Positions 1,605 to 19,250 of a DNA stretch of 20,829 nt are shown here, piece after piece (position 1 is the first letter of the stretch; each line of letters starts with the position of its first letter). The notes below the pieces were generated by a model, which did not search any database, had not been told where the DNA came from, and was given only the letters and a program-made list of their open reading frames with translations. Source of the DNA: Promethearchaeota archaeon (lineage in GTDB: Archaea > Asgardarchaeota > Lokiarchaeia > Sigyniarchaeales > SOKP01); NCBI GenBank assembly GCA_048938855.1, contig JBHLLT010000037.1:1-20829 (forward strand). The letters run 5' to 3'. Position numbers and translations under genes: made by a program.

Positions 1605-2162
1605 ATGTCTTATCGCGGAAAGGTTATATTACTCGGAGACGCAGGTGTTGGGAAAACTAGTCTGTTAGCTCAATATGTGGATGGTCGCTTTAGTGAAGAA
1701 TATCATCAAACGACAGGAGCTAATTTCCTAATAAAAGAAATTGATTTAACTAGGATAATAGATCAATTGGATATAAAAAACCCGAAATTAAAGAAAGATA
1801 TTAGGGAAAAGGGTTTCAAATTATACTTCTGGGATATTGGCGGGCAAACAGATAAATTATGGGCTAATGAATATTATTTTGTTCAAGCAGTTGGAGCGAT
1901 GGTTATTTTTTCCTTAGATAAAGTATCTTCATTTGAACAAATTGATTTTTGGATAAATAAATTAAAAGAATTAAGTGGAGATGTACCATATGTTATTGTT
2001 GGAAATAAAACAGATTTACAAAGAAAAATTAATACTGAATTAATTCAAAATAAAATAAGAGCTGTTGGAGTAAAATATTTTGAAACTTCAGCAAAATTAA
2101 ATGAGAATGTAGATGAAGCATTTGAGAGTTTGTCTGTTCAGATTTTGAACACTTTTAAATGA
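1605..2162 (+). CDS. Rab/Ras-superfamily small GTPase (eukaryotic signature protein)
   Basis: G1 GDAGVGKTS, G2 TTGANF, G3 WDIGGQ, G4 NKTD, G5 ETSAK; no C-terminal Cys prenylation motif. Confidence 0.93.
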   Translation: MSYRGKVILLGDAGVGKTSLLAQYVDGRFSEEYHQTTGANFLIKEIDLTRIIDQLDIKNPKLKKDIREKGFKLYFWDIGGQTDKLWANEYYFVQAVGAMVIFSLDKVSSFEQIDFWINKLKELSGDVPYVIVGNKTDLQRKINTELIQNKIRAVGVKYFETSAKLNENVDEAFESLSVQILNTFK

Positions 2163-4236: not shown

Positions 4237-5526
4237 TTATTTTAATGGTTTAATAATCTTTTTACCATTCATATATTTCTGAAGTACTACTGGAATTGTA
4301 ATTGAATGGTCTTTATTTTGATAATTTTCAAGAATGCAACATATAGTGCGTTCAGTTGCTATTGCGGTAGAATTCAAGGTATGCAATATTTCTTTTGCTT
4401 GTTGTGAACCAACTTTTCCCACTCGGATTTTCAATTTTCTTGCTTGATAATCCAAACAATTACTGCATGAAACGAGTTCACGATATGTCTCTGATGCTGG
4501 AAACCACGCTTCTAAATCATACTTTTTAGCAGCATTATCATTTAATTCTCCAGAAGCAATGTTTGCTATTCTGTACGGTATTTTTAACTCTTTATAAAGC
4601 TCTTCAGCATTAGTTATTAATTCTTCAAAATGATTCCATGAATCTTCAGGTTTGCTGAAAATAAACTGTTCTACTTTCTCAAACCGGTGAACTCTGAATA
4701 TTCCTAAAGTATCCTTTCCATGAGATCCCGCTTCTCTTCTAAAGCATGATGAAATTCCGGCATACTTCAAAGGTAATCTTTCAGGTTCAATAATTTCATT
4801 ATAATGATATGCTGCTATAGTTTGTTCGGAAGTCGCAATCATATATAGATCTTCATCTTGAATTTTATACAGTTGTTCTTCAAAATCTGCTAATTCTGCA
4901 GCAGCCTTCATTACTTCATGTTTAGTGAAAAAGGGGGTCCAGATTGGTAGATAATTCTTGCTTGTTAATTTCTCTAAAGCAAATTTTAAAAGAGCTAAAT
5001 TGAGAAGCACTAAATCTCCTTTTAAATAGAAAAATCTTGATCCTGCAATTTCTGAAGCTTTTTTAGTATCTGCTCCTCCAATTTTGGTAATTAAGTCGAC
5101 ATGAGAAAGAGGTTTGAAATTAAATTTTGGGACACTCCCCACTGTTCTAAGAATCTCATTTTCCTCTTCGGTTTCTCCTCTAGGAACAGATTCATGTAAG
5201 ATATTCCCTACCATGTAACGGTATTTTTCTCTTTGTTCTAGATATTCTGTTGTTAATTTTTCTAATTCATCAATTTTATCTTTAACTTGTTTTGACTCAG
5301 CTATAGATTCATCAGCTTTCTCCGTATCACCAACCTTTTTGAAATTTCCGATTTTGAGAGAAATTTCATTCCTTTTTTTTCGTAATTCTTCTATCTCTTG
5401 TAAAGCAGCTCTCCACTTTTTATCAAAATCTAATACTTTCTCTGCATTTGAAGGATCTTTGAACCTTTTTTCCTCTGATTTAATTATGTCATCTAAATTT
5501 TTTCTGAACAGTTCAATATCAAGCAA
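4237..5526 (-). CDS. serS: Seryl-tRNA synthetase (bacterial/eukaryal-type class II)
   Basis: MLDI start, N-terminal coiled arm, ATSEQ, FRREAGSHGKDTLGIFRVHRFEKVEQF, ELVSCSNCLDYQAR, HTLNSTAIATER. TTG start with an AAGGAG SD just upstream. Confidence 0.97.
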   Translation of the reverse strand: MLDIELFRKNLDDIIKSEEKRFKDPSNAEKVLDFDKKWRAALQEIEELRKKRNEISLKIGNFKKVGDTEKADESIAESKQVKDKIDELEKLTTEYLEQREKYRYMVGNILHESVPRGETEEENEILRTVGSVPKFNFKPLSHVDLITKIGGADTKKASEIAGSRFFYLKGDLVLLNLALLKFALEKLTSKNYLPIWTPFFTKHEVMKAAAELADFEEQLYKIQDEDLYMIATSEQTIAAYHYNEIIEPERLPLKYAGISSCFRREAGSHGKDTLGIFRVHRFEKVEQFIFSKPEDSWNHFEELITNAEELYKELKIPYRIANIASGELNDNAAKKYDLEAWFPASETYRELVSCSNCLDYQARKLKIRVGKVGSQQAKEILHTLNSTAIATERTICCILENYQNKDHSITIPVVLQKYMNGKKIIKPLK

Positions 5527-5807: not shown

Positions 5808-6034
5808 ATTGTTAAATAATTTTTTTTTCAATAAAAAATTCACGAGACCTCCATTAAAGGATTTTTTGAAAATTAAACGATTAAGAGATAAAACAAAAGA
5901 AAATAAATTAAACCACTTATTGAACTCTAATCAGAAAAAATAAATTATTTCCTTAATTTCAAAACCCAATAAAATTTGATATAAAATTTCAAATTAACTA
6001 CAAAATTGTGGTGACACTATACAAAAAGGTGAAA

Positions 6035-8095
6035 ATGATGTCTGATAAACAGACCATGGAGAAAAAAATATCTGGTAAAGAGGCGGGTAAAGATAAAGGT
6101 AAAGATAACATTCGCATAGGCGTTTACGTATGTCGGTGAGGAGTAAATATAGGAGCCGTTGTAGATTGTGATGCGGTCAAGGATGCCATTGAAAATCTTC
6201 CAGATGTTGTTATTGCGAGAACTAATGATTTTACATGTAGCGATCCTGGACAAAATTCTATTAGAGAAGATATATTAGAATATGAGCTAAATAGAGTAGT
6301 AGTTGCTGCATGCACACCAAAAATTCATGAACCCACTTATCGGGCTGTATTAGTTGAAGCAGGCTTAAGTCCTTACTATTTTCAAATGGTGAATTTAAGG
6401 GAACATTGTTCTTTTGTTCACAGAGATGATAAAAAAAAAGCAACTGAGAAAGCGATAAGATTAGTTAAAGCAGGAATTAATCGCGCTCGAGAATTAGAAA
6501 ATATACCACGAAAAGAAATTCCTGCTGAAAAGGCAGTGCTAGTAATAGGAGCAGGTATTGCCGGTATGAATGCAGCTCTAGATTTAGCTAATCAAGGAAT
6601 TCCAGTATATTTAATTGAGAAAGAAGCTACTATTGGTGGTAAAATGGCACAATTAGATAGAATTTATCCAACGGATGATTGTGGAATATGAGTCTTGGCA
6701 CCGATAATGGTAAATGCTTCAAAACATCCGAATATAAATTTATACACATACAGTGATGTTGTGGAATTTTCTGGTATCCCTGGAAATTACAATATAAGAA
6801 TCCGTAAAAATCCACGTTATATAGATGAAAAGAAATGTACAGGTTGCGGATTATGCACAACTAAATGTCCTATTAAAGTTCCTAGTGAATTTGACAGAGG
6901 TATTGGTGAAAGAGGTGCTATTTATATTCCTTTTCCTCAAGCAGTACCAAAATTAGCTGTAATGGATCGGAGTGTTTGTATTGAATGCAAAAATTGTGAA
7001 AGAATATGTCCAGCTGAAGCAATTAATTTTGAACAAGAAGCAGAATATATTGATGTCAAGGTAGGTGCTGTGATTATTGCAACTGGTTGGGACGAATATC
7101 CAATATGGGAATCAAATGAATATCATTATGGTTATTACCCTGATGTTATTACTCAAATAGAATTAGAAAGGCTGTTAAGTCCAATTGGACCGACTGGAGG
7201 ACATGTTTACAGGATATCCAATGGGGAAACACCAAAAACTGTAGTAATGATTCAGTGTGTCGGCTCGAGAGATGTTAATGCTAATCCATATTGTTCATTT
7301 GTGTGTTGTAGTGTAGCACTTAAAAATGCTCAATTACTGCTACAAGAATATCCAGATATGGAAGTAATTCTATTTTACATTGATATACGAACTACAGATA
7401 AAGGTAATGAAGAGTATTATCGAAAAATAAGAGAATCTGGTATTCGAATGATTAGAGGAAAAGTGGGTGAAATTGTTGAAGATAAGGAGAATAATAAGTT
7501 AAAAGTTCGAGCATACTCATCTTTAACTGGAGAAATTGTAAAAATTGATGCTGATTTAGTTGTTCTATCAACAGGAATGATTCCTTCTAAAGGTACCGAA
7601 GAAATGGTTGAAGTAATGGGATTAAGCAAAGGTCCAGGAGGCTTTCTTTCTGAAATTCATGGATGTTTAAACCCACAAGAAACAAAAGATATAGGAATAT
7701 ACATTGCTGGATGCGCAGCAGGTCCAAAAAATATTCCTTATTCAGTATCTTCTGCTTTAGCAGCTGCAAGTAAAGCATCAACTCTCTTATCCCATGATAC
7801 TATAAAACAAGAACTAATTATTGCTGAAGTTGATAAGGATCTTTGTATGGGATGCCGTAGATGTGAAAAACTATGCTCTTACGAAGCAATAAAAGTAAAC
7901 GAGGATGAAATTGCTGAAGTAGATGATTTAAAATGTAAAGGTTGTGGAGTATGTGTATCATCTTGTCCAGCAAGAGCTATAGATTTAAAATATTACAGAG
8001 ATAGGCAATTTAGTCAAGAAATAAAAGGTATTGGATGTAGTGATGCTGAAACAATAGAAATACCTTCTGAAAGTATTGAAGAATTAACGGATTAG
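6035..8095 (+). CDS. hdrA: Heterodisulfide reductase subunit A, selenoprotein (686 aa; Sec-UGA at 6137-6139 and 6689-6691)
   Basis: One continuous frame from ATG 6035 (GGTGA SD) to TAG 8093-8095 if two TGAs are read through. They fall at conserved Cys positions: RIGVYVCR*GVNI (consensus CHCGxNI) and YPTDDCGI*VLAP. Also present: VVAACTP, NLREHCS, FAD motif GAGIAG, two ferredoxin domains, QCVGSRD...YCSFVCC. Confidence 0.95.
6074..6109 (+). repeat. Three imperfect 12-nt tandem repeats in the hdrA N-terminal extension
   Basis: GGTAAAGAGGCG GGTAAAGATAAA GGTAAAGATAAC, encoding GKEA-GKDK-GKDN. Confidence 0.6.
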
Positions 8096-8105
8096 AGGAA
8101 AAAAA

Positions 8106-8534
8106 ATGGTTGGTAACCAAAACGATTATTCACGAAGAATTATAGCCTTTGGCTGTGATAAATGAGGGTATTCAGTAGCAGATTTAACAGGAGTTACACG
8201 AAAATCATATTCAACTGACTTTCACCTCATACGAGTCAGATGTACAGGGCGAATAGGAATACACTTAATTATGGAAGCTTTTCTCAATGGTGCTGATGGT
8301 GTTGCAATAATCTCTTGAAAAAAAGGAGAATGTGAATTCGGTAATGGTAATACTAATACATATGAACATGTAATCACTTTAAAAAAAATATTGAAGCATG
8401 AAGGTATATCTGAGGAAAGAATCCAACAATATTTCTGTTCAGCTGCAGAAGTTGAAAAATTTATGACTTCAGTTGAAGATATATCATCCAGAATTCAAGC
8501 CCTCCCTCCATTACCTAAAAATAATCCGAATTAG
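8106..8534 (+). CDS. mvhD: MvhD/VhuD [2Fe-2S] subunit, selenoprotein (142 aa; Sec-UGA at 8163-8165 and 8316-8318); absent from the ORF track
   Basis: Manual translation: MVGNQNDYSRRIIAFGCDK*GYSVADLTG...IRVRCTGRI...AFLNGADGVAIIS*KKGECEFGNGN...GISEERIQQYFCSAAEVEKF...PKNNPN-TAG. Both TGAs align to MvhD Cys/Sec positions. GAGGA SD overlaps the hdrA stop. Confidence 0.93.
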
Positions 8535-8594
8535 AATGATCTTTTCAAAAAAATATTAGTTGAAGAGAAACTAACCCGCGGCTCGGGTTTTCGG
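8535..8594 (+). promoter_or_regulatory. Candidate SECIS-like RNA structure 3' of mvhD
   Basis: AUGA (8536-8539) directly followed by a 9-bp stem UCUUUUCAA/UUGAAGAGA (8540-8548/8560-8568) with an A-rich loop, then a GC-rich hairpin AACCCG-cggcu-CGGGUU (8573-8589). It lies immediately downstream of two UGA-containing genes. Confidence 0.55.
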
Positions 8595-8628
8595 AAAAAT
8601 TAGAATTTAAATATTATTTAGCATAATT

Positions 8629-10122
8629 ATGAGTCTTGAAAAAAACCTTTCATGGGAGTTTTTAAAAAATCTAGCAGAAGCTTTAGATTCATATAGAATC
8701 AGAGCTCTTATTGATGCTAAACGTGATATTTTAAAAGCAGGAGTATATAATGAAATCCAATATGAAACTATCCTCTATAATATGCTAGATGAAGAGAAAT
8801 TAAAATACTCTCTATTTAATTTTTTAAAAAATAACTCTGAAGGTAATTTAGAAACCTTAAATCAATTTTCTAAAATAAACTCTATTGAGTTAAAAAAGAC
8901 ATTGAGTTTATTTGAATTACTTAAAAATGAAAAATTAATTATCGTAGAAGAATTATATGATAAAATTAAAGGAGATGATAATAATCCAGAAAGATTAATC
9001 TTCAAAGACTTTTCAATTAAAGCTTTTGAAGGAGATATTTCAAAACTCAAACCAATCTATGAACCTGTAAAAGTTATTTTTGAATCTAAAAATTGCTCAG
9101 GTTGTGGTCTTTGCGCAGCAATCTGCCCAGCAAATTGTATTCATATTTATAATGGTTTTGGAAAAATTGATGAAGAAAAATGTATTCGATGCGGATTGTG
9201 CTATTTTGTTTGTCCTAGAACTTATTTACCTATGAAAATTTTAAATATGGCACAAGAAAATGTTTCTGAAATCAAGGACTATGGTAAAGTTGGATACTTT
9301 ATAGAAGCATACTCTGCTAGAACTAAAATAAAAGAGATTTCAGATATATGTCAAGATGGAGGAATTTCAAGCACTTGTATATATTATCTTTTAGAAAAAA
9401 ATAAGATCGATTATGCTATTGGCGCTAAAATGAGTAATACACTATGGCGACCAGAACCTTTTTTAATTAAAAATAAGGACGATATCCTTTCCTCAGCAGG
9501 TACTAAATACGTAAATAATCCCAACTTACAATTATTAAATGATCGCGAACTTAATGAGAAAAAAATTGCAGTTGTAGGAGTTCCGTGTCAAATGCAGGCA
9601 CTTCTGAAATCAAATATTTATAATATAGGATTTCCCTCGATTAATAATGTAGAATATCGAATTGGTATCTTCTGTATGGAATCGTTTTCTTATGAATCCC
9701 TTTTTAATATTTGTAAGAAATTAGAAGTTGATATAAATAATGCAAAAAAGATGGATATCAACAAAGGGAAATTCTTTGTATATACCCAAAAAGGTGAAGA
9801 ATTTAATATCCCTATCAAAGAAATTTCACATTTTGCTCGAGCAGACTGTGAGATGTGTTATGATTTAACTTCTGAATCTGCAGACATTTCAATCGGGTCA
9901 ATAGGTTCTCCTTCAGGATGGAATACAGTACTCATTAGAACTGAAAAAGGCAAAGAACTTTATAACGAATTGATTAAACATAAGTTAATTGAATCTAAGC
10001 CAATTACAGAGGTGAAACCTGGATTACCACTCTTAGAAAAAACGGCTAATTCCAAAAAAACTAAGAGTAAAAAACATATAAATTTAAAATTAGAAGAGAA
10101 CCAGAGAGTTCCAATTTATTAG
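8629..10122 (+). CDS. Coenzyme F420 hydrogenase/dehydrogenase beta-subunit family protein (FrhB/FpoF-like) with 2[4Fe-4S] ferredoxin domain and ~145-aa N-terminal extension
   Basis: CSGCGLCAAICP / CIRCGLCYFVCP; FrhB motifs QDGG, SAGTKY, VVGVPCQ, IGIFCMESF, CEMCYD...ADISIGSIGSPSGWNTVLIRTEKG. Confidence 0.9.
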   Translation: MSLEKNLSWEFLKNLAEALDSYRIRALIDAKRDILKAGVYNEIQYETILYNMLDEEKLKYSLFNFLKNNSEGNLETLNQFSKINSIELKKTLSLFELLKNEKLIIVEELYDKIKGDDNNPERLIFKDFSIKAFEGDISKLKPIYEPVKVIFESKNCSGCGLCAAICPANCIHIYNGFGKIDEEKCIRCGLCYFVCPRTYLPMKILNMAQENVSEIKDYGKVGYFIEAYSARTKIKEISDICQDGGISSTCIYYLLEKNKIDYAIGAKMSNTLWRPEPFLIKNKDDILSSAGTKYVNNPNLQLLNDRELNEKKIAVVGVPCQMQALLKSNIYNIGFPSINNVEYRIGIFCMESFSYESLFNICKKLEVDINNAKKMDINKGKFFVYTQKGEEFNIPIKEISHFARADCEMCYDLTSESADISIGSIGSPSGWNTVLIRTEKGKELYNELIKHKLIESKPITEVKPGLPLLEKTANSKKTKSKKHINLKLEENQRVPIY

Positions 10123-13693: not shown

Positions 13694-14467
13694 TCAATCT
13701 GATTTAATTGTTTTTATTTTAAAGATAGGTGGCATAATATGTTTATGATGTGCTGATTTCATCATGTTCTTTACATTTTTTACATGATCTTGGTTTAGGT
13801 CAGTTAAAGCTAAATTATTATCAATTCTATATATAATTTCATCTAGGACATCATATGTTATACCAATTTCATCTTCATCAGTTTGCCCTTCCCATAATCC
13901 AGCGCTTGGTGGTTTAATTATAATTTCTTCGGGAATTCCGAGTAATTTTGCAATCTTACTTACTTCACATTTATAAAATCCCCCAATTGGTTCTATATCT
14001 ACACCTCCGTCACCATATTTAGTAAAATACCCAATAGCTATTTCTGTTCTATTGCTAGTACCTGCCACAATAGACTTTCCTAAAGACTGGCCTATGAAAT
14101 AAATAGTCATCATCCTTAATCTAGGTTTTAAGTTTGCTATTGCCAAGCTATTAGATTCAATTACTGAGGCTGATTTTTTCATAAATTCATTGTAGACATT
14201 TTCTAAATCAAAAATGATAAATCTTATTCCTAAGTTTTTAGCTAATGCATTGGCATCCTTCAAATCTTGAGGATTTGATGAACAGGGTAATCCTAGGCCT
14301 ATTACATTTTCCTTACCAAGTGCTCTAACACATAAAGTCGTCGTTACAGCACTATCAATTCCTCCGCTAATTCCTACTACAATAGATTTAACATTTGCTG
14401 TATTTACATAATCTTTAATCCATTTTTGTATGTCTGATATAATTTTTTCATATTCAAGTTCTCTCAT
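13694..14467 (-). CDS. nadE: NH3-dependent NAD+ synthetase
   Basis: GISGGIDSAV, NLKPRLRM, GTSNRTE..IGYFTKYGDGG, KPPSAGLWEGQTDE; no glutaminase domain. Confidence 0.96.
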   Translation of the reverse strand: MRELEYEKIISDIQKWIKDYVNTANVKSIVVGISGGIDSAVTTTLCVRALGKENVIGLGLPCSSNPQDLKDANALAKNLGIRFIIFDLENVYNEFMKKSASVIESNSLAIANLKPRLRMMTIYFIGQSLGKSIVAGTSNRTEIAIGYFTKYGDGGVDIEPIGGFYKCEVSKIAKLLGIPEEIIIKPPSAGLWEGQTDEDEIGITYDVLDEIIYRIDNNLALTDLNQDHVKNVKNMMKSAHHKHIMPPIFKIKTIKSD

Positions 14468-18416: not shown

Positions 18417-19250
18417 ATGGAAAATTTTTTACTAGGATTATTACTAAGCTTAATGGCTGGCCTGTCAACCACTATAGGGAGTTTCTTTTCTTTTTTTATG
18501 AAAAAACCTAGTCCCAAATTTATTTCATTCATCATGGGATTTTCTGCAGGAGTGATGATCTTGATTTCTTTTGTGGAATTACTTCAAGGTAGTATGAATG
18601 AGACAAGTCCATTGTTAGGTTTAATGTTTTTCTTTCTTGGAATGATAATTATGTTTTTAATTGATATTTTAGTTTCTCATGAGTATGAATTTGAGGATTC
18701 TATAGAATTTTTAGTTACTAATAATGGTCAATATAAGCCACATCTTCATCATGGTCACAGGCACGGACAGCGCCCTCGCTATTATGATGAGAAAAAGAAT
18801 AATCAATTAGCTAAAACATCTATTTTTATAGTTTTCGGAGTTTTTATTCATAATTTTCCAGAGGGTATGGCAACCTTTATTGGGGCTTTAACTCAAGTTA
18901 ACCTTGGAATTTTATTAGCTATCGCTATTGCTTTACATAACATACCAGAAGGTATAGCTGTAGCAGTTCCAATTTATGCTTATACCTTAAACAGGAAAAA
19001 AGCTTTTAAATGGTCCTTTATATCAGGTATGAGTGAGCCATTAGGAGCTTTAATAACATGGTTAATTCTCTTTCCTTTTATTAATGATTTTATTTTATAT
19101 GCTATGTTAGGTGCAGTGGGAGGGATAATGGTTTATATATCTTTAGATGAACTCTTGCCAATGTCTCGATCTCTGGCCAAAGAGCATTATTCGATAATCG
19201 GAATCATAACTGGGATGTTTATTATGGCTGTTAGTTTGATATTATTATGA
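18417..19250 (+). CDS. zupT: ZIP-family (ZupT/GufA) divalent metal transporter
   Basis: GFSAGVM, HNFPEG and HNIPEG motifs, SGMSEPLGA, ISLDELLP; His-rich loop HLHHGHRHG. Confidence 0.92.
   Translation: MENFLLGLLLSLMAGLSTTIGSFFSFFMKKPSPKFISFIMGFSAGVMILISFVELLQGSMNETSPLLGLMFFFLGMIIMFLIDILVSHEYEFEDSIEFLVTNNGQYKPHLHHGHRHGQRPRYYDEKKNNQLAKTSIFIVFGVFIHNFPEGMATFIGALTQVNLGILLAIAIALHNIPEGIAVAVPIYAYTLNRKKAFKWSFISGMSEPLGALITWLILFPFINDFILYAMLGAVGGIMVYISLDELLPMSRSLAKEHYSIIGIITGMFIMAVSLILL

Follow-up and report, generated by a model that had tools for sequence, protein, structure and literature searches.

Four in-frame UGA codons, very probably decoded as selenocysteine under a single lokiSECIS, in a tandem hdrA-mvhD locus of a Promethearchaeota genome

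Tandem selenoprotein pairs of HdrA and VhuD (FrhD) with one shared lokiSECIS, a eukaryote-like type of selenocysteine insertion sequence (SECIS), have been described in Lokiarchaeota and other Asgard archaea (Mariotti et al. 2016, PMC4989117; Huang, Xiao & Zhang 2024, PMC11227280). Here we analyzed a stretch of 20,829 nucleotides (NCBI GenBank assembly GCA_048938855.1, contig JBHLLT010000037.1, positions 1 to 20,829), hereafter called the window, in which an hdrA gene is directly followed by mvhD and both genes contain in-frame TGA codons. The host genome is a metagenome-assembled genome (MAG) from Promethearchaeota (Lokiarchaeia) of 3.95 Mb in 93 contigs, with 30% G+C. We consider it very probable that the locus is a bicistronic selenoprotein operon, encoding an HdrA with selenocysteine (Sec, U) at residues 35 and 219 and an MvhD with Sec at residues 20 and 71 under one lokiSECIS at 8526-8594. 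The initial annotation of this DNA had named HdrA and VhuD as reported selenoproteins of Lokiarchaeota, and both publications indeed describe the same arrangement. The published Asgard pairs resemble the present locus in lineage, gene order, the very short spacer, a multi-Sec HdrA that includes the canonical site, and a two-Sec VhuD. They also share the single SECIS after the second gene, with AUGA, a nine-position stem and an 11-nucleotide AAAAA...AG loop, an hdrA that never ends in UGA, and the AUGA_AA core variant. No essential difference was found; the lower helix P1, the hairpin P3, and the frhB-like neighbor described below are not discussed in the available portions of the two main texts.

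When the two genes (Table 1) were translated with TGA read through, TGA was the only internal stop, at codons 35 and 219 of hdrA (6035-8095) and codons 20 and 71 of mvhD (8106-8534), and no frameshifts were detected in these frames. The translation matched exactly the in-frame TGA positions listed in the initial annotation (6137, 6689, 8163, and 8316), and it agreed with the accompanying statements that the genes contain no other stops or frameshifts and that both end in TAG. The start codon of mvhD is the ATG at 8106, which leaves a gap of 10 nucleotides between the genes. Shine-Dalgarno-like sequences were located 5' of both starts: GGTG at 6028-6031 for hdrA, and GAGG at 8095-8098, overlapping the hdrA stop, for mvhD. 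Standard open reading frame (ORF) calling had been said to split hdrA and to lose mvhD, and the ORF list contained hdrA as two pieces (6386-6691 and 6695-8095) and no piece of mvhD of at least 60 amino acids. The first approximately 26 codons of hdrA (6035-6115) are Lys/Gly-rich and weakly conserved, with a ratio of nonsynonymous to synonymous differences (pN/pS) of 0.4-0.7. DNA matches to hdrA orthologs begin near base 82, and solved HdrA chains align from residue 27. Species may vary in this N-terminal extension or in which codon truly serves as the start.

Alignment to the HdrA and MvhD families, the first check proposed in the initial annotation, upheld both assignments. HdrA matched the NCBIfam model HdrA2 (3.6e-249 over residues 27-672), and phmmer searches against PDB returned the solved chains 9sfi_A (2.3e-217) and 5odc_A (1.1e-210) over residues 27-666. 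Homology with solved HdrA runs from end to end, through the N-terminal MvhD-like domain, the thioredoxin-reductase-like flavin adenine dinucleotide (FAD) domain, and the inserted and C-terminal ferredoxin domains; Pfam recorded Fer4 in four stretches and, at 167-200, an N-terminal Rossmann match. MvhD matched Pfam FlpD (PF02662) with 127.6 bits against a gathering threshold of 22.3 (E = 3.4e-37, profile positions 1-122 of 123), and PDB chain 5odc_D with 3.7e-27. Scores were below the NCBIfam equivalog cut-offs for HdrA2 (829 bits vs. 1100; this model includes a fused MvhD), for two HdrA models (617 vs. 1300 and 601 vs. 1400), and for VhuD (120 vs. 215). The proteins are therefore to be regarded as HdrA and MvhD homologs whose membership in a CoM-S-S-CoB reductase is unproven. 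The window contains neither hdrBC nor hydrogenase genes.

The four TGA codons lie on Cys/Sec columns of these families. U219 aligned to X (Sec197) of Methanococcus maripaludis HdrA (9sfi_A, context TDDCAMX). In the VhuD chain 9sfi_K, X stands at the columns of both U20 (CYQXGY) and U71 (AGXKPNEC). The U20 column is Cys in 5odc_D and 7bkb_F, and the U71 column is Cys in other solved MvhD chains. The statement in the initial annotation that the contexts UGY, UKKGEC, and TDDCxxU match methanococcal Sec sites was borne out by these chains, which read QXGY and GXKPNEC in 9sfi_K and TDDCAMX in 9sfi_A. At the U35 column, 9sfi_A (VCYCGANI) has Cys. In the host genome the Cys-type paralogs on contigs C24 and C6 also have Cys there, and the five Sec-type HdrA paralogs all have Sec. 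In MvhD the residues C16, U20, C47, U71, and C76 all aligned to Cys/Sec columns of 5odc_D, 7bkb_F, and 9sfi_K. The host genome contains five Sec-type hdrA and four Sec-type mvhD genes with Sec at the same columns, where the Cys-type copies carry Cys, and Cys-type homologs in general have Cys at all four columns.

Conservation was assessed in 19 genomes of the same genus with an orthologous locus (75-85% DNA identity). TGA was kept at every site covered in 19 of 19 loci: the U35 codon was TGA in all 17 loci covering it (two contigs are cut), and the U219, U20, and U71 codons were TGA in 19 of 19 each. Synonymous sites differ by 40-70% among these loci (pS 0.4-0.7), and the retention of four TGAs despite this divergence is not a chance pattern. 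Before, between, and after the UGAs pN/pS was approximately 0.1 (0.02-0.3 in conserved segments). In a further set of 46 Promethearchaeota loci TGA was retained in almost all, and the U35 codon was TGA in 43 of the 43 loci that cover it. Three more distant loci (L111, L116, and L118) carry TGC or TGT (Cys) at mvhD site 71 and TGA at the other three sites. We read this as classical Sec/Cys interchange, which makes site 71 the most exchangeable Sec. Throughout the 65 loci (19 + 46) no sense codon other than Cys replaced TGA, indicating selection for Sec itself. The initial annotation had held that the genes would be pseudogenes if the UGAs were not conserved as UGA or Cys in close relatives; UGA is kept, and Cys occurs at one site in three distant relatives. 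Given these data, the four UGAs in hdrA and mvhD are almost certainly read as selenocysteine.

A search of the host genome for the Sec machinery, whose lack would have spoken against recoding according to the initial annotation, recovered tRNA-Sec, PSTK, SepSecS, SelB/EFSec, and SelD. The tRNA-Sec gene scored 61 bits with Rfam and was called SeC(tca) by ARAGORN. SepSecS (2.5e-109) lies 200 nucleotides from tRNA-Sec and SelB/EFSec (472 amino acids, Pfam aSelB_III domain above cut-off) lies 5 kb from it, so that the three genes are clustered within 7 kb (G000:C49:35767-42808). Two adjacent selD genes contain one in-frame TGA each (G000:C34:253707-255755).

Directly 3' of mvhD we identified an RNA element with the published lokiSECIS characteristics: AUGA, a 9-bp stem, an 11-nucleotide loop, and a position after the second gene of the pair. 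The distances from the UGAs to its AUGA are 2399 nucleotides for Sec35, 1847 for Sec219, 373 for Sec20, and 220 for Sec71. At the outermost position of stem P2, bases 8540 and 8568 are paired in just 14 of 19 orthologs and 4 of 11 elements of the host genome; P2 is thus effectively 8 bp plus one variable position. The AAC at 8569-8571 was invariant in the 19 orthologs. A GA directly after the stem (the GA_GA quartet) was not found, and the core here is AUGA_AA, a variant that PMC11227280 lists for hdrA/frhD and frhA of Lokiarchaeia and PMC4989117 for VhuU. The GA at 8567-8568 was considered as a bulged core and rejected, since 8568 varies (A, G, or C) and A8569, A8570, and C8571 are invariant.

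Statistical support for the element was obtained in several ways. A strict motif regular expression gave 13 matches in the genome vs. 0-2 in reversed or shuffled controls, and among the matches are sites directly 3' of each of the four Sec-type hdrA-mvhD pairs and another 3' of the fifth Sec-type hdrA, which stands alone. Two matches (C41:98234 and C90:22241) were taken as chance, being located inside long ORFs without TGA, at a rate in keeping with the 0-2 matches in controls. A covariance model (R1) found one significant match in the window, the element at 8526-8594. Of 46 Asgard loci, 42 gave one match each, 3' of mvhD, and eight non-Asgard hdrA loci gave none. Column identity of the element was 90% across the 19 orthologs vs. 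approximately 60% synonymous-codon identity in the genes. Locus L064, whose SECIS coordinates mapped wrongly, is excluded from alignment A1. In the 11 SECIS elements of the host genome all 18 pairs of the three helices covary with changes on both sides, 92.7% of cells are paired, none of 500 shuffles reached the observed score, and covariation was 0.94 vs. at most 0.25 for slid partners. The three-armed structure also fits 42 loci of other MAGs, in alignments that were fitted to the model and therefore favor the structure. RNAfold of 8525-8635 alone was not significant (z = -1.1), and the support for the structure thus comes from conservation and covariation, not from energy. The P1 lower helix and the P3 hairpin are not described in the available portions of the main texts of PMC4989117 and PMC11227280.

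No raised synonymous conservation was seen after any of the UGAs. A local bacterial-type SECIS after each UGA was accordingly rejected, synonymous sites there being conserved no more than average, and hdrA shows no indication of a local SECIS. With no SECIS of its own for hdrA, the element at 8526-8594 would have to act 220 to 2399 nucleotides upstream and across the cistron boundary, presumably on one common mRNA. The stop codon of hdrA was TAA or TAG in 20 of 20 loci, an avoidance of UGA that would be expected if UGA at this position were read as Sec. The proposed mechanism would then be as follows: Sec-tRNA(Sec) is made by seryl-tRNA synthetase, PSTK, and SepSecS with selenophosphate from SelD, the archaeal SelB/EFSec delivers it to the four UGAs, and the one SECIS directs decoding in both cistrons. 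The hdrA product would serve as a flavin-based electron-bifurcating subunit, and the mvhD/vhuD product as its [2Fe-2S] adaptor.

Several observations weigh against a selenoprotein operon governed by this element. One SECIS would have to reach UGAs 2.4 kb away on its 5' side, beyond an intervening stop codon, and SBP2 is not known from this lineage (PMC4989117). The core has AA where eukaryotic and most lokiSECIS cores have GA, and an Rfam search of the whole window with E up to 10 returned no SECIS family nor any other credible RNA, although standard tools likewise missed the SECIS elements in Mariotti et al. (PMC4989117). PSTK and SelB scored below their curated NCBIfam cut-offs (133 vs. 290 bits and 232 vs. 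242 bits); these families are nevertheless top-scoring for their respective proteins. Contamination of the genome bin is 7%, yet the Sec genes and the five hdrA loci have one SECIS type. The evidence is comparative genomics on MAGs throughout.

The alternative that survives best is that the UGAs act partly or conditionally as stops, or are decoded as residues other than Sec (e.g. Cys or Trp, by near-cognate tRNAs). In that case full-length Sec protein would be accompanied by other products, and selenium limitation would yield truncated HdrA or MvhD. Sequence alone is silent on the inserted residue and on efficiency, four serial UGAs would compound any inefficiency, and the retained Cys-type hdrA/mvhD paralogs (on C24, C6, and others) are possible substitutes, as Vhc is for Vhu in Methanococcus (PMC13518236). 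We nevertheless judge this alternative improbable in view of the complete Sec machinery with a dedicated SECIS, the replacement of TGA by no sense codon but Cys in 65 loci, and the strong purifying selection 3' of every UGA. Pseudogenes formed by nonsense mutation, or TGAs due to assembly or sequencing errors, would explain why standard gene calling breaks both genes, but have next to no probability when the same TGAs recur in 19 + 46 independently assembled loci, pN/pS is approximately 0.1 around each TGA, frameshifts are absent, and each of the four sites coincides with a Cys/Sec column. A change of the code that gives UGA a sense meaning throughout the genome, for which nothing speaks beyond the open frames, is just as implausible, since TGA ends 5 of 19 window ORFs (the Ras-type GTPase, nadE, the ZIP transporter, and two more) and 159 of the 1258 long ORFs genome-wide (TAA 908, TAG 191), and in-frame TGA in the window is limited to hdrA and mvhD. 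The initial annotation was thus right to propose site-specific recoding in place of a code change.

As to the role of the Sec residues, the claim that each UGA stands at a Cys-equivalent position of an iron-sulfur (Fe-S) motif held only in part: all four sites are Cys-equivalent, but U219 and U20 do not lie in classical ferredoxin-type motifs. At least two of the Sec sites are thus redox-active Cys positions beside cofactors, not classical Fe-S ligands. The Cys-Sec197 pair of HdrA, equivalent to the CxxU of U219, has been read as a selenenylsulfide redox relay between cluster A3 and FAD in a 2026 cryo-electron microscopy study (PMC13518236). The U20-equivalent Cys near the MvhD [2Fe-2S] cluster has been described as forming a disulfide, and in BamF this residue is Sec19 (bioRxiv 10.64898/2026.04.10.717634). 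U219 and U20 are probably redox-active selenols beside cofactors. The other two sites, U71 and U35, may be Fe-S cluster ligands. MvhD has five conserved Cys/Sec positions (C16, U20, C47, U71, and C76) and the cluster needs four ligands, which makes U71 a probable one; with three ordinary Cys left among the five positions, at least one Sec would be a direct selenolate ligand. In HdrA the N-terminal cluster domain has four conserved Cys positions; U35 occupies one of them and is for this reason a possible ligand.

We tentatively advance a joint proposal, for which we rate the chances at somewhat below even. In this proposal the SECIS would be a K-junction-like three-way element, with P1 formed from the last mvhD codons and with the P3 arm, and hence more than the published AUGA hairpin, placed in the last spacer of a conserved hdrA-mvhD-frhB trio. 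In addition, an Fe-S cluster would be ligated directly by the selenolate of one Sec or more, the probable candidates being U71 and, in HdrA, U35. If all three arms are needed, each ribosome terminating on mvhD would unfold the signal used by ribosomes up to 2.4 kb upstream, and Sec decoding in two cistrons would be coupled to the translation of mvhD.

Table 1. Coordinates of the hdrA-mvhD locus, its putative Sec codons and SECIS element, and other genes in the window.
Feature	Positions	Strand	Remarks
hdrA (HdrA-type FAD/Fe-S flavoprotein)	6035-8095	+	686 codons, 2 Sec codons, TAG stop at 8093-8095
UGA, predicted Sec35 in hdrA	6137-6139	+	motif C-R-U-G-V-N-I, N-terminal MvhD-like domain
UGA, predicted Sec219 in hdrA	6689-6691	+	canonical HdrA Sec site, T-D-D-C-G-I-U, CxxU motif
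mvhD/vhuD ([2Fe-2S] adaptor subunit)	8106-8534	+	142 codons, 2 Sec codons, TAG stop at 8532-8534
UGA, predicted Sec20 in mvhD	8163-8165	+	motif C-D-K-U-G-Y
UGA, predicted Sec71 in mvhD	8316-8318	+	motif I-S-U-K-K-G-E-C
lokiSECIS (Asgard eSECIS-like type I), three-armed	8526-8594	+	3' of mvhD
P1 lower helix	CCGAA 8526-8530 with UUCGG 8590-8594	+	5' strand is last mvhD codons
AUGA	8536-8539	+	one base after mvhD TAG
P2 stem, 9 positions	8540-8548 with 8560-8568	+	
Apical loop, 11 nucleotides, AAAAAUAUUAG	8549-8559	+	starts AAAAA, ends AG
AAC	8569-8571	+	3' of P2
P3 short G+C hairpin	8575-8578 with 8584-8587	+	between AAC and lower helix
FrhB/FdhB-like F420-binding Fe-S protein gene	8629-10122	+	Pfam FrhB_FdhB_C 1e-42, FrhB_FdhB_N 3e-18
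Seryl-tRNA synthetase	4237-5526	-	divergent, upstream of operon
Ras-type GTPase	1605-2162		TGA stop
nadE	13694-14467		TGA stop
ZIP transporter (zupT in the initial annotation)	18417-19250		TGA stop

The frhB-like gene is found directly downstream in 63 of 65 related loci and starts 35 nucleotides after the SECIS, which is contained in the 94-nucleotide spacer between mvhD and this gene; the remaining approximately 35 bases of the spacer (8595-8628) are AT-rich and poorly conserved. If frhB is co-transcribed, the SECIS would be intercistronic and not in a 3' untranslated region. Upstream of the operon lies the gene for seryl-tRNA synthetase, which loads serine onto tRNA-Sec. It is a neighbor in 40 of the 65 related loci, where flank length limits the count. 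Its location beside a selenoprotein operon may be a coincidence.

Other putative Sec loci were noted in the host genome. The fifth Sec-type hdrA (G000:C77:2601-4698, minus strand; loci L035/L067, also L122:1501-3603) is 70% identical to the window hdrA, has Sec at 35 and 219 and its own lokiSECIS directly after the stop, and is followed by no mvhD; hdrA-only DNA matches at approximately 74-75% identity were present in at least 12 congeners. According to the published account, hdrA and vhuD/frhD of Asgard archaea invariably form tandem pairs, and this solitary gene is an exception to that. A further hdrA paralog (G000:C20:88504-90438, plus strand; locus L036) contains four UGAs, at positions 35, 68, 93, and 219. 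The N-terminal cluster domain has four conserved Cys positions, and in this paralog three of them are Sec. If these residues are ligands, the [4Fe-4S] cluster would be largely selenolate-ligated. Small membrane proteins form another group: five tandem ORFs of 68-85 codons with two transmembrane segments each (L075:1813-4027, minus strand, equal to G000:C70:123313-125527), and a 70-codon membrane ORF on contig C66 (L076:1670-1958, minus strand). Each of them has one in-frame UGA between hydrophobic stretches, and lokiSECIS elements follow these ORFs. The tandem on C70 has three lokiSECIS for five ORFs, and two pairs seemingly share one. The UGA and its flanking residues are kept in two other species (L153 and L154), and no Pfam family matched the small ORFs on C70 and C66.

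Gene callers split hdrA and lose mvhD in this genome and in dozens of related MAGs, and metabolic reconstructions of Asgard archaea consequently undercount electron-bifurcation modules. With one SECIS, four UGAs, and two cistrons, the locus is a clean and very well conserved case, and a good template for reporter tests that address the extra RNA arms and the action of a SECIS at long range.

Outside the Asgard archaea, the HdrA and VhuD of M. maripaludis are homologous proteins encoded by adjoining genes, with Sec at the U219, U20, and U71 columns. In contrast to the present locus, the methanococcal HdrA has Cys at the U35 position, the methanococcal SECIS is of the GAA_A-bulge archaeal type with one element per gene, and the partners of the methanogen enzyme are HdrBC and a [NiFeSe] hydrogenase; here there is just an FrhB-like neighbor. 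Eukaryotic type I SECIS elements (Rfam RF00031), including those of multi-Sec mRNAs (SelP), are likewise located 3' of the coding sequence; the element described here differs in its shorter upper stem, its AA instead of GA core, its extra hairpin arm, and the two cistrons that it would serve, as well as in having no match in Rfam and no SBP2 known in its lineage. BamE and BamF of the class II benzoyl-CoA reductase of Geobacter metallireducens also combine an HdrA-type bifurcating subunit with an MvhD-type adaptor, and Sec19 of BamF occupies the U20-equivalent position beside the [2Fe-2S] cluster (bioRxiv 10.64898/2026.04.10.717634). They are bacterial, however, and depend on a bacterial Sec system, a longer adaptor, and other partner subunits. 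Compared with these systems the closest match remains the arrangement already published for the lineage in 2016 and 2024: the locus is real but ordinary, and leaves the knowledge of Asgard selenoproteins unchanged.

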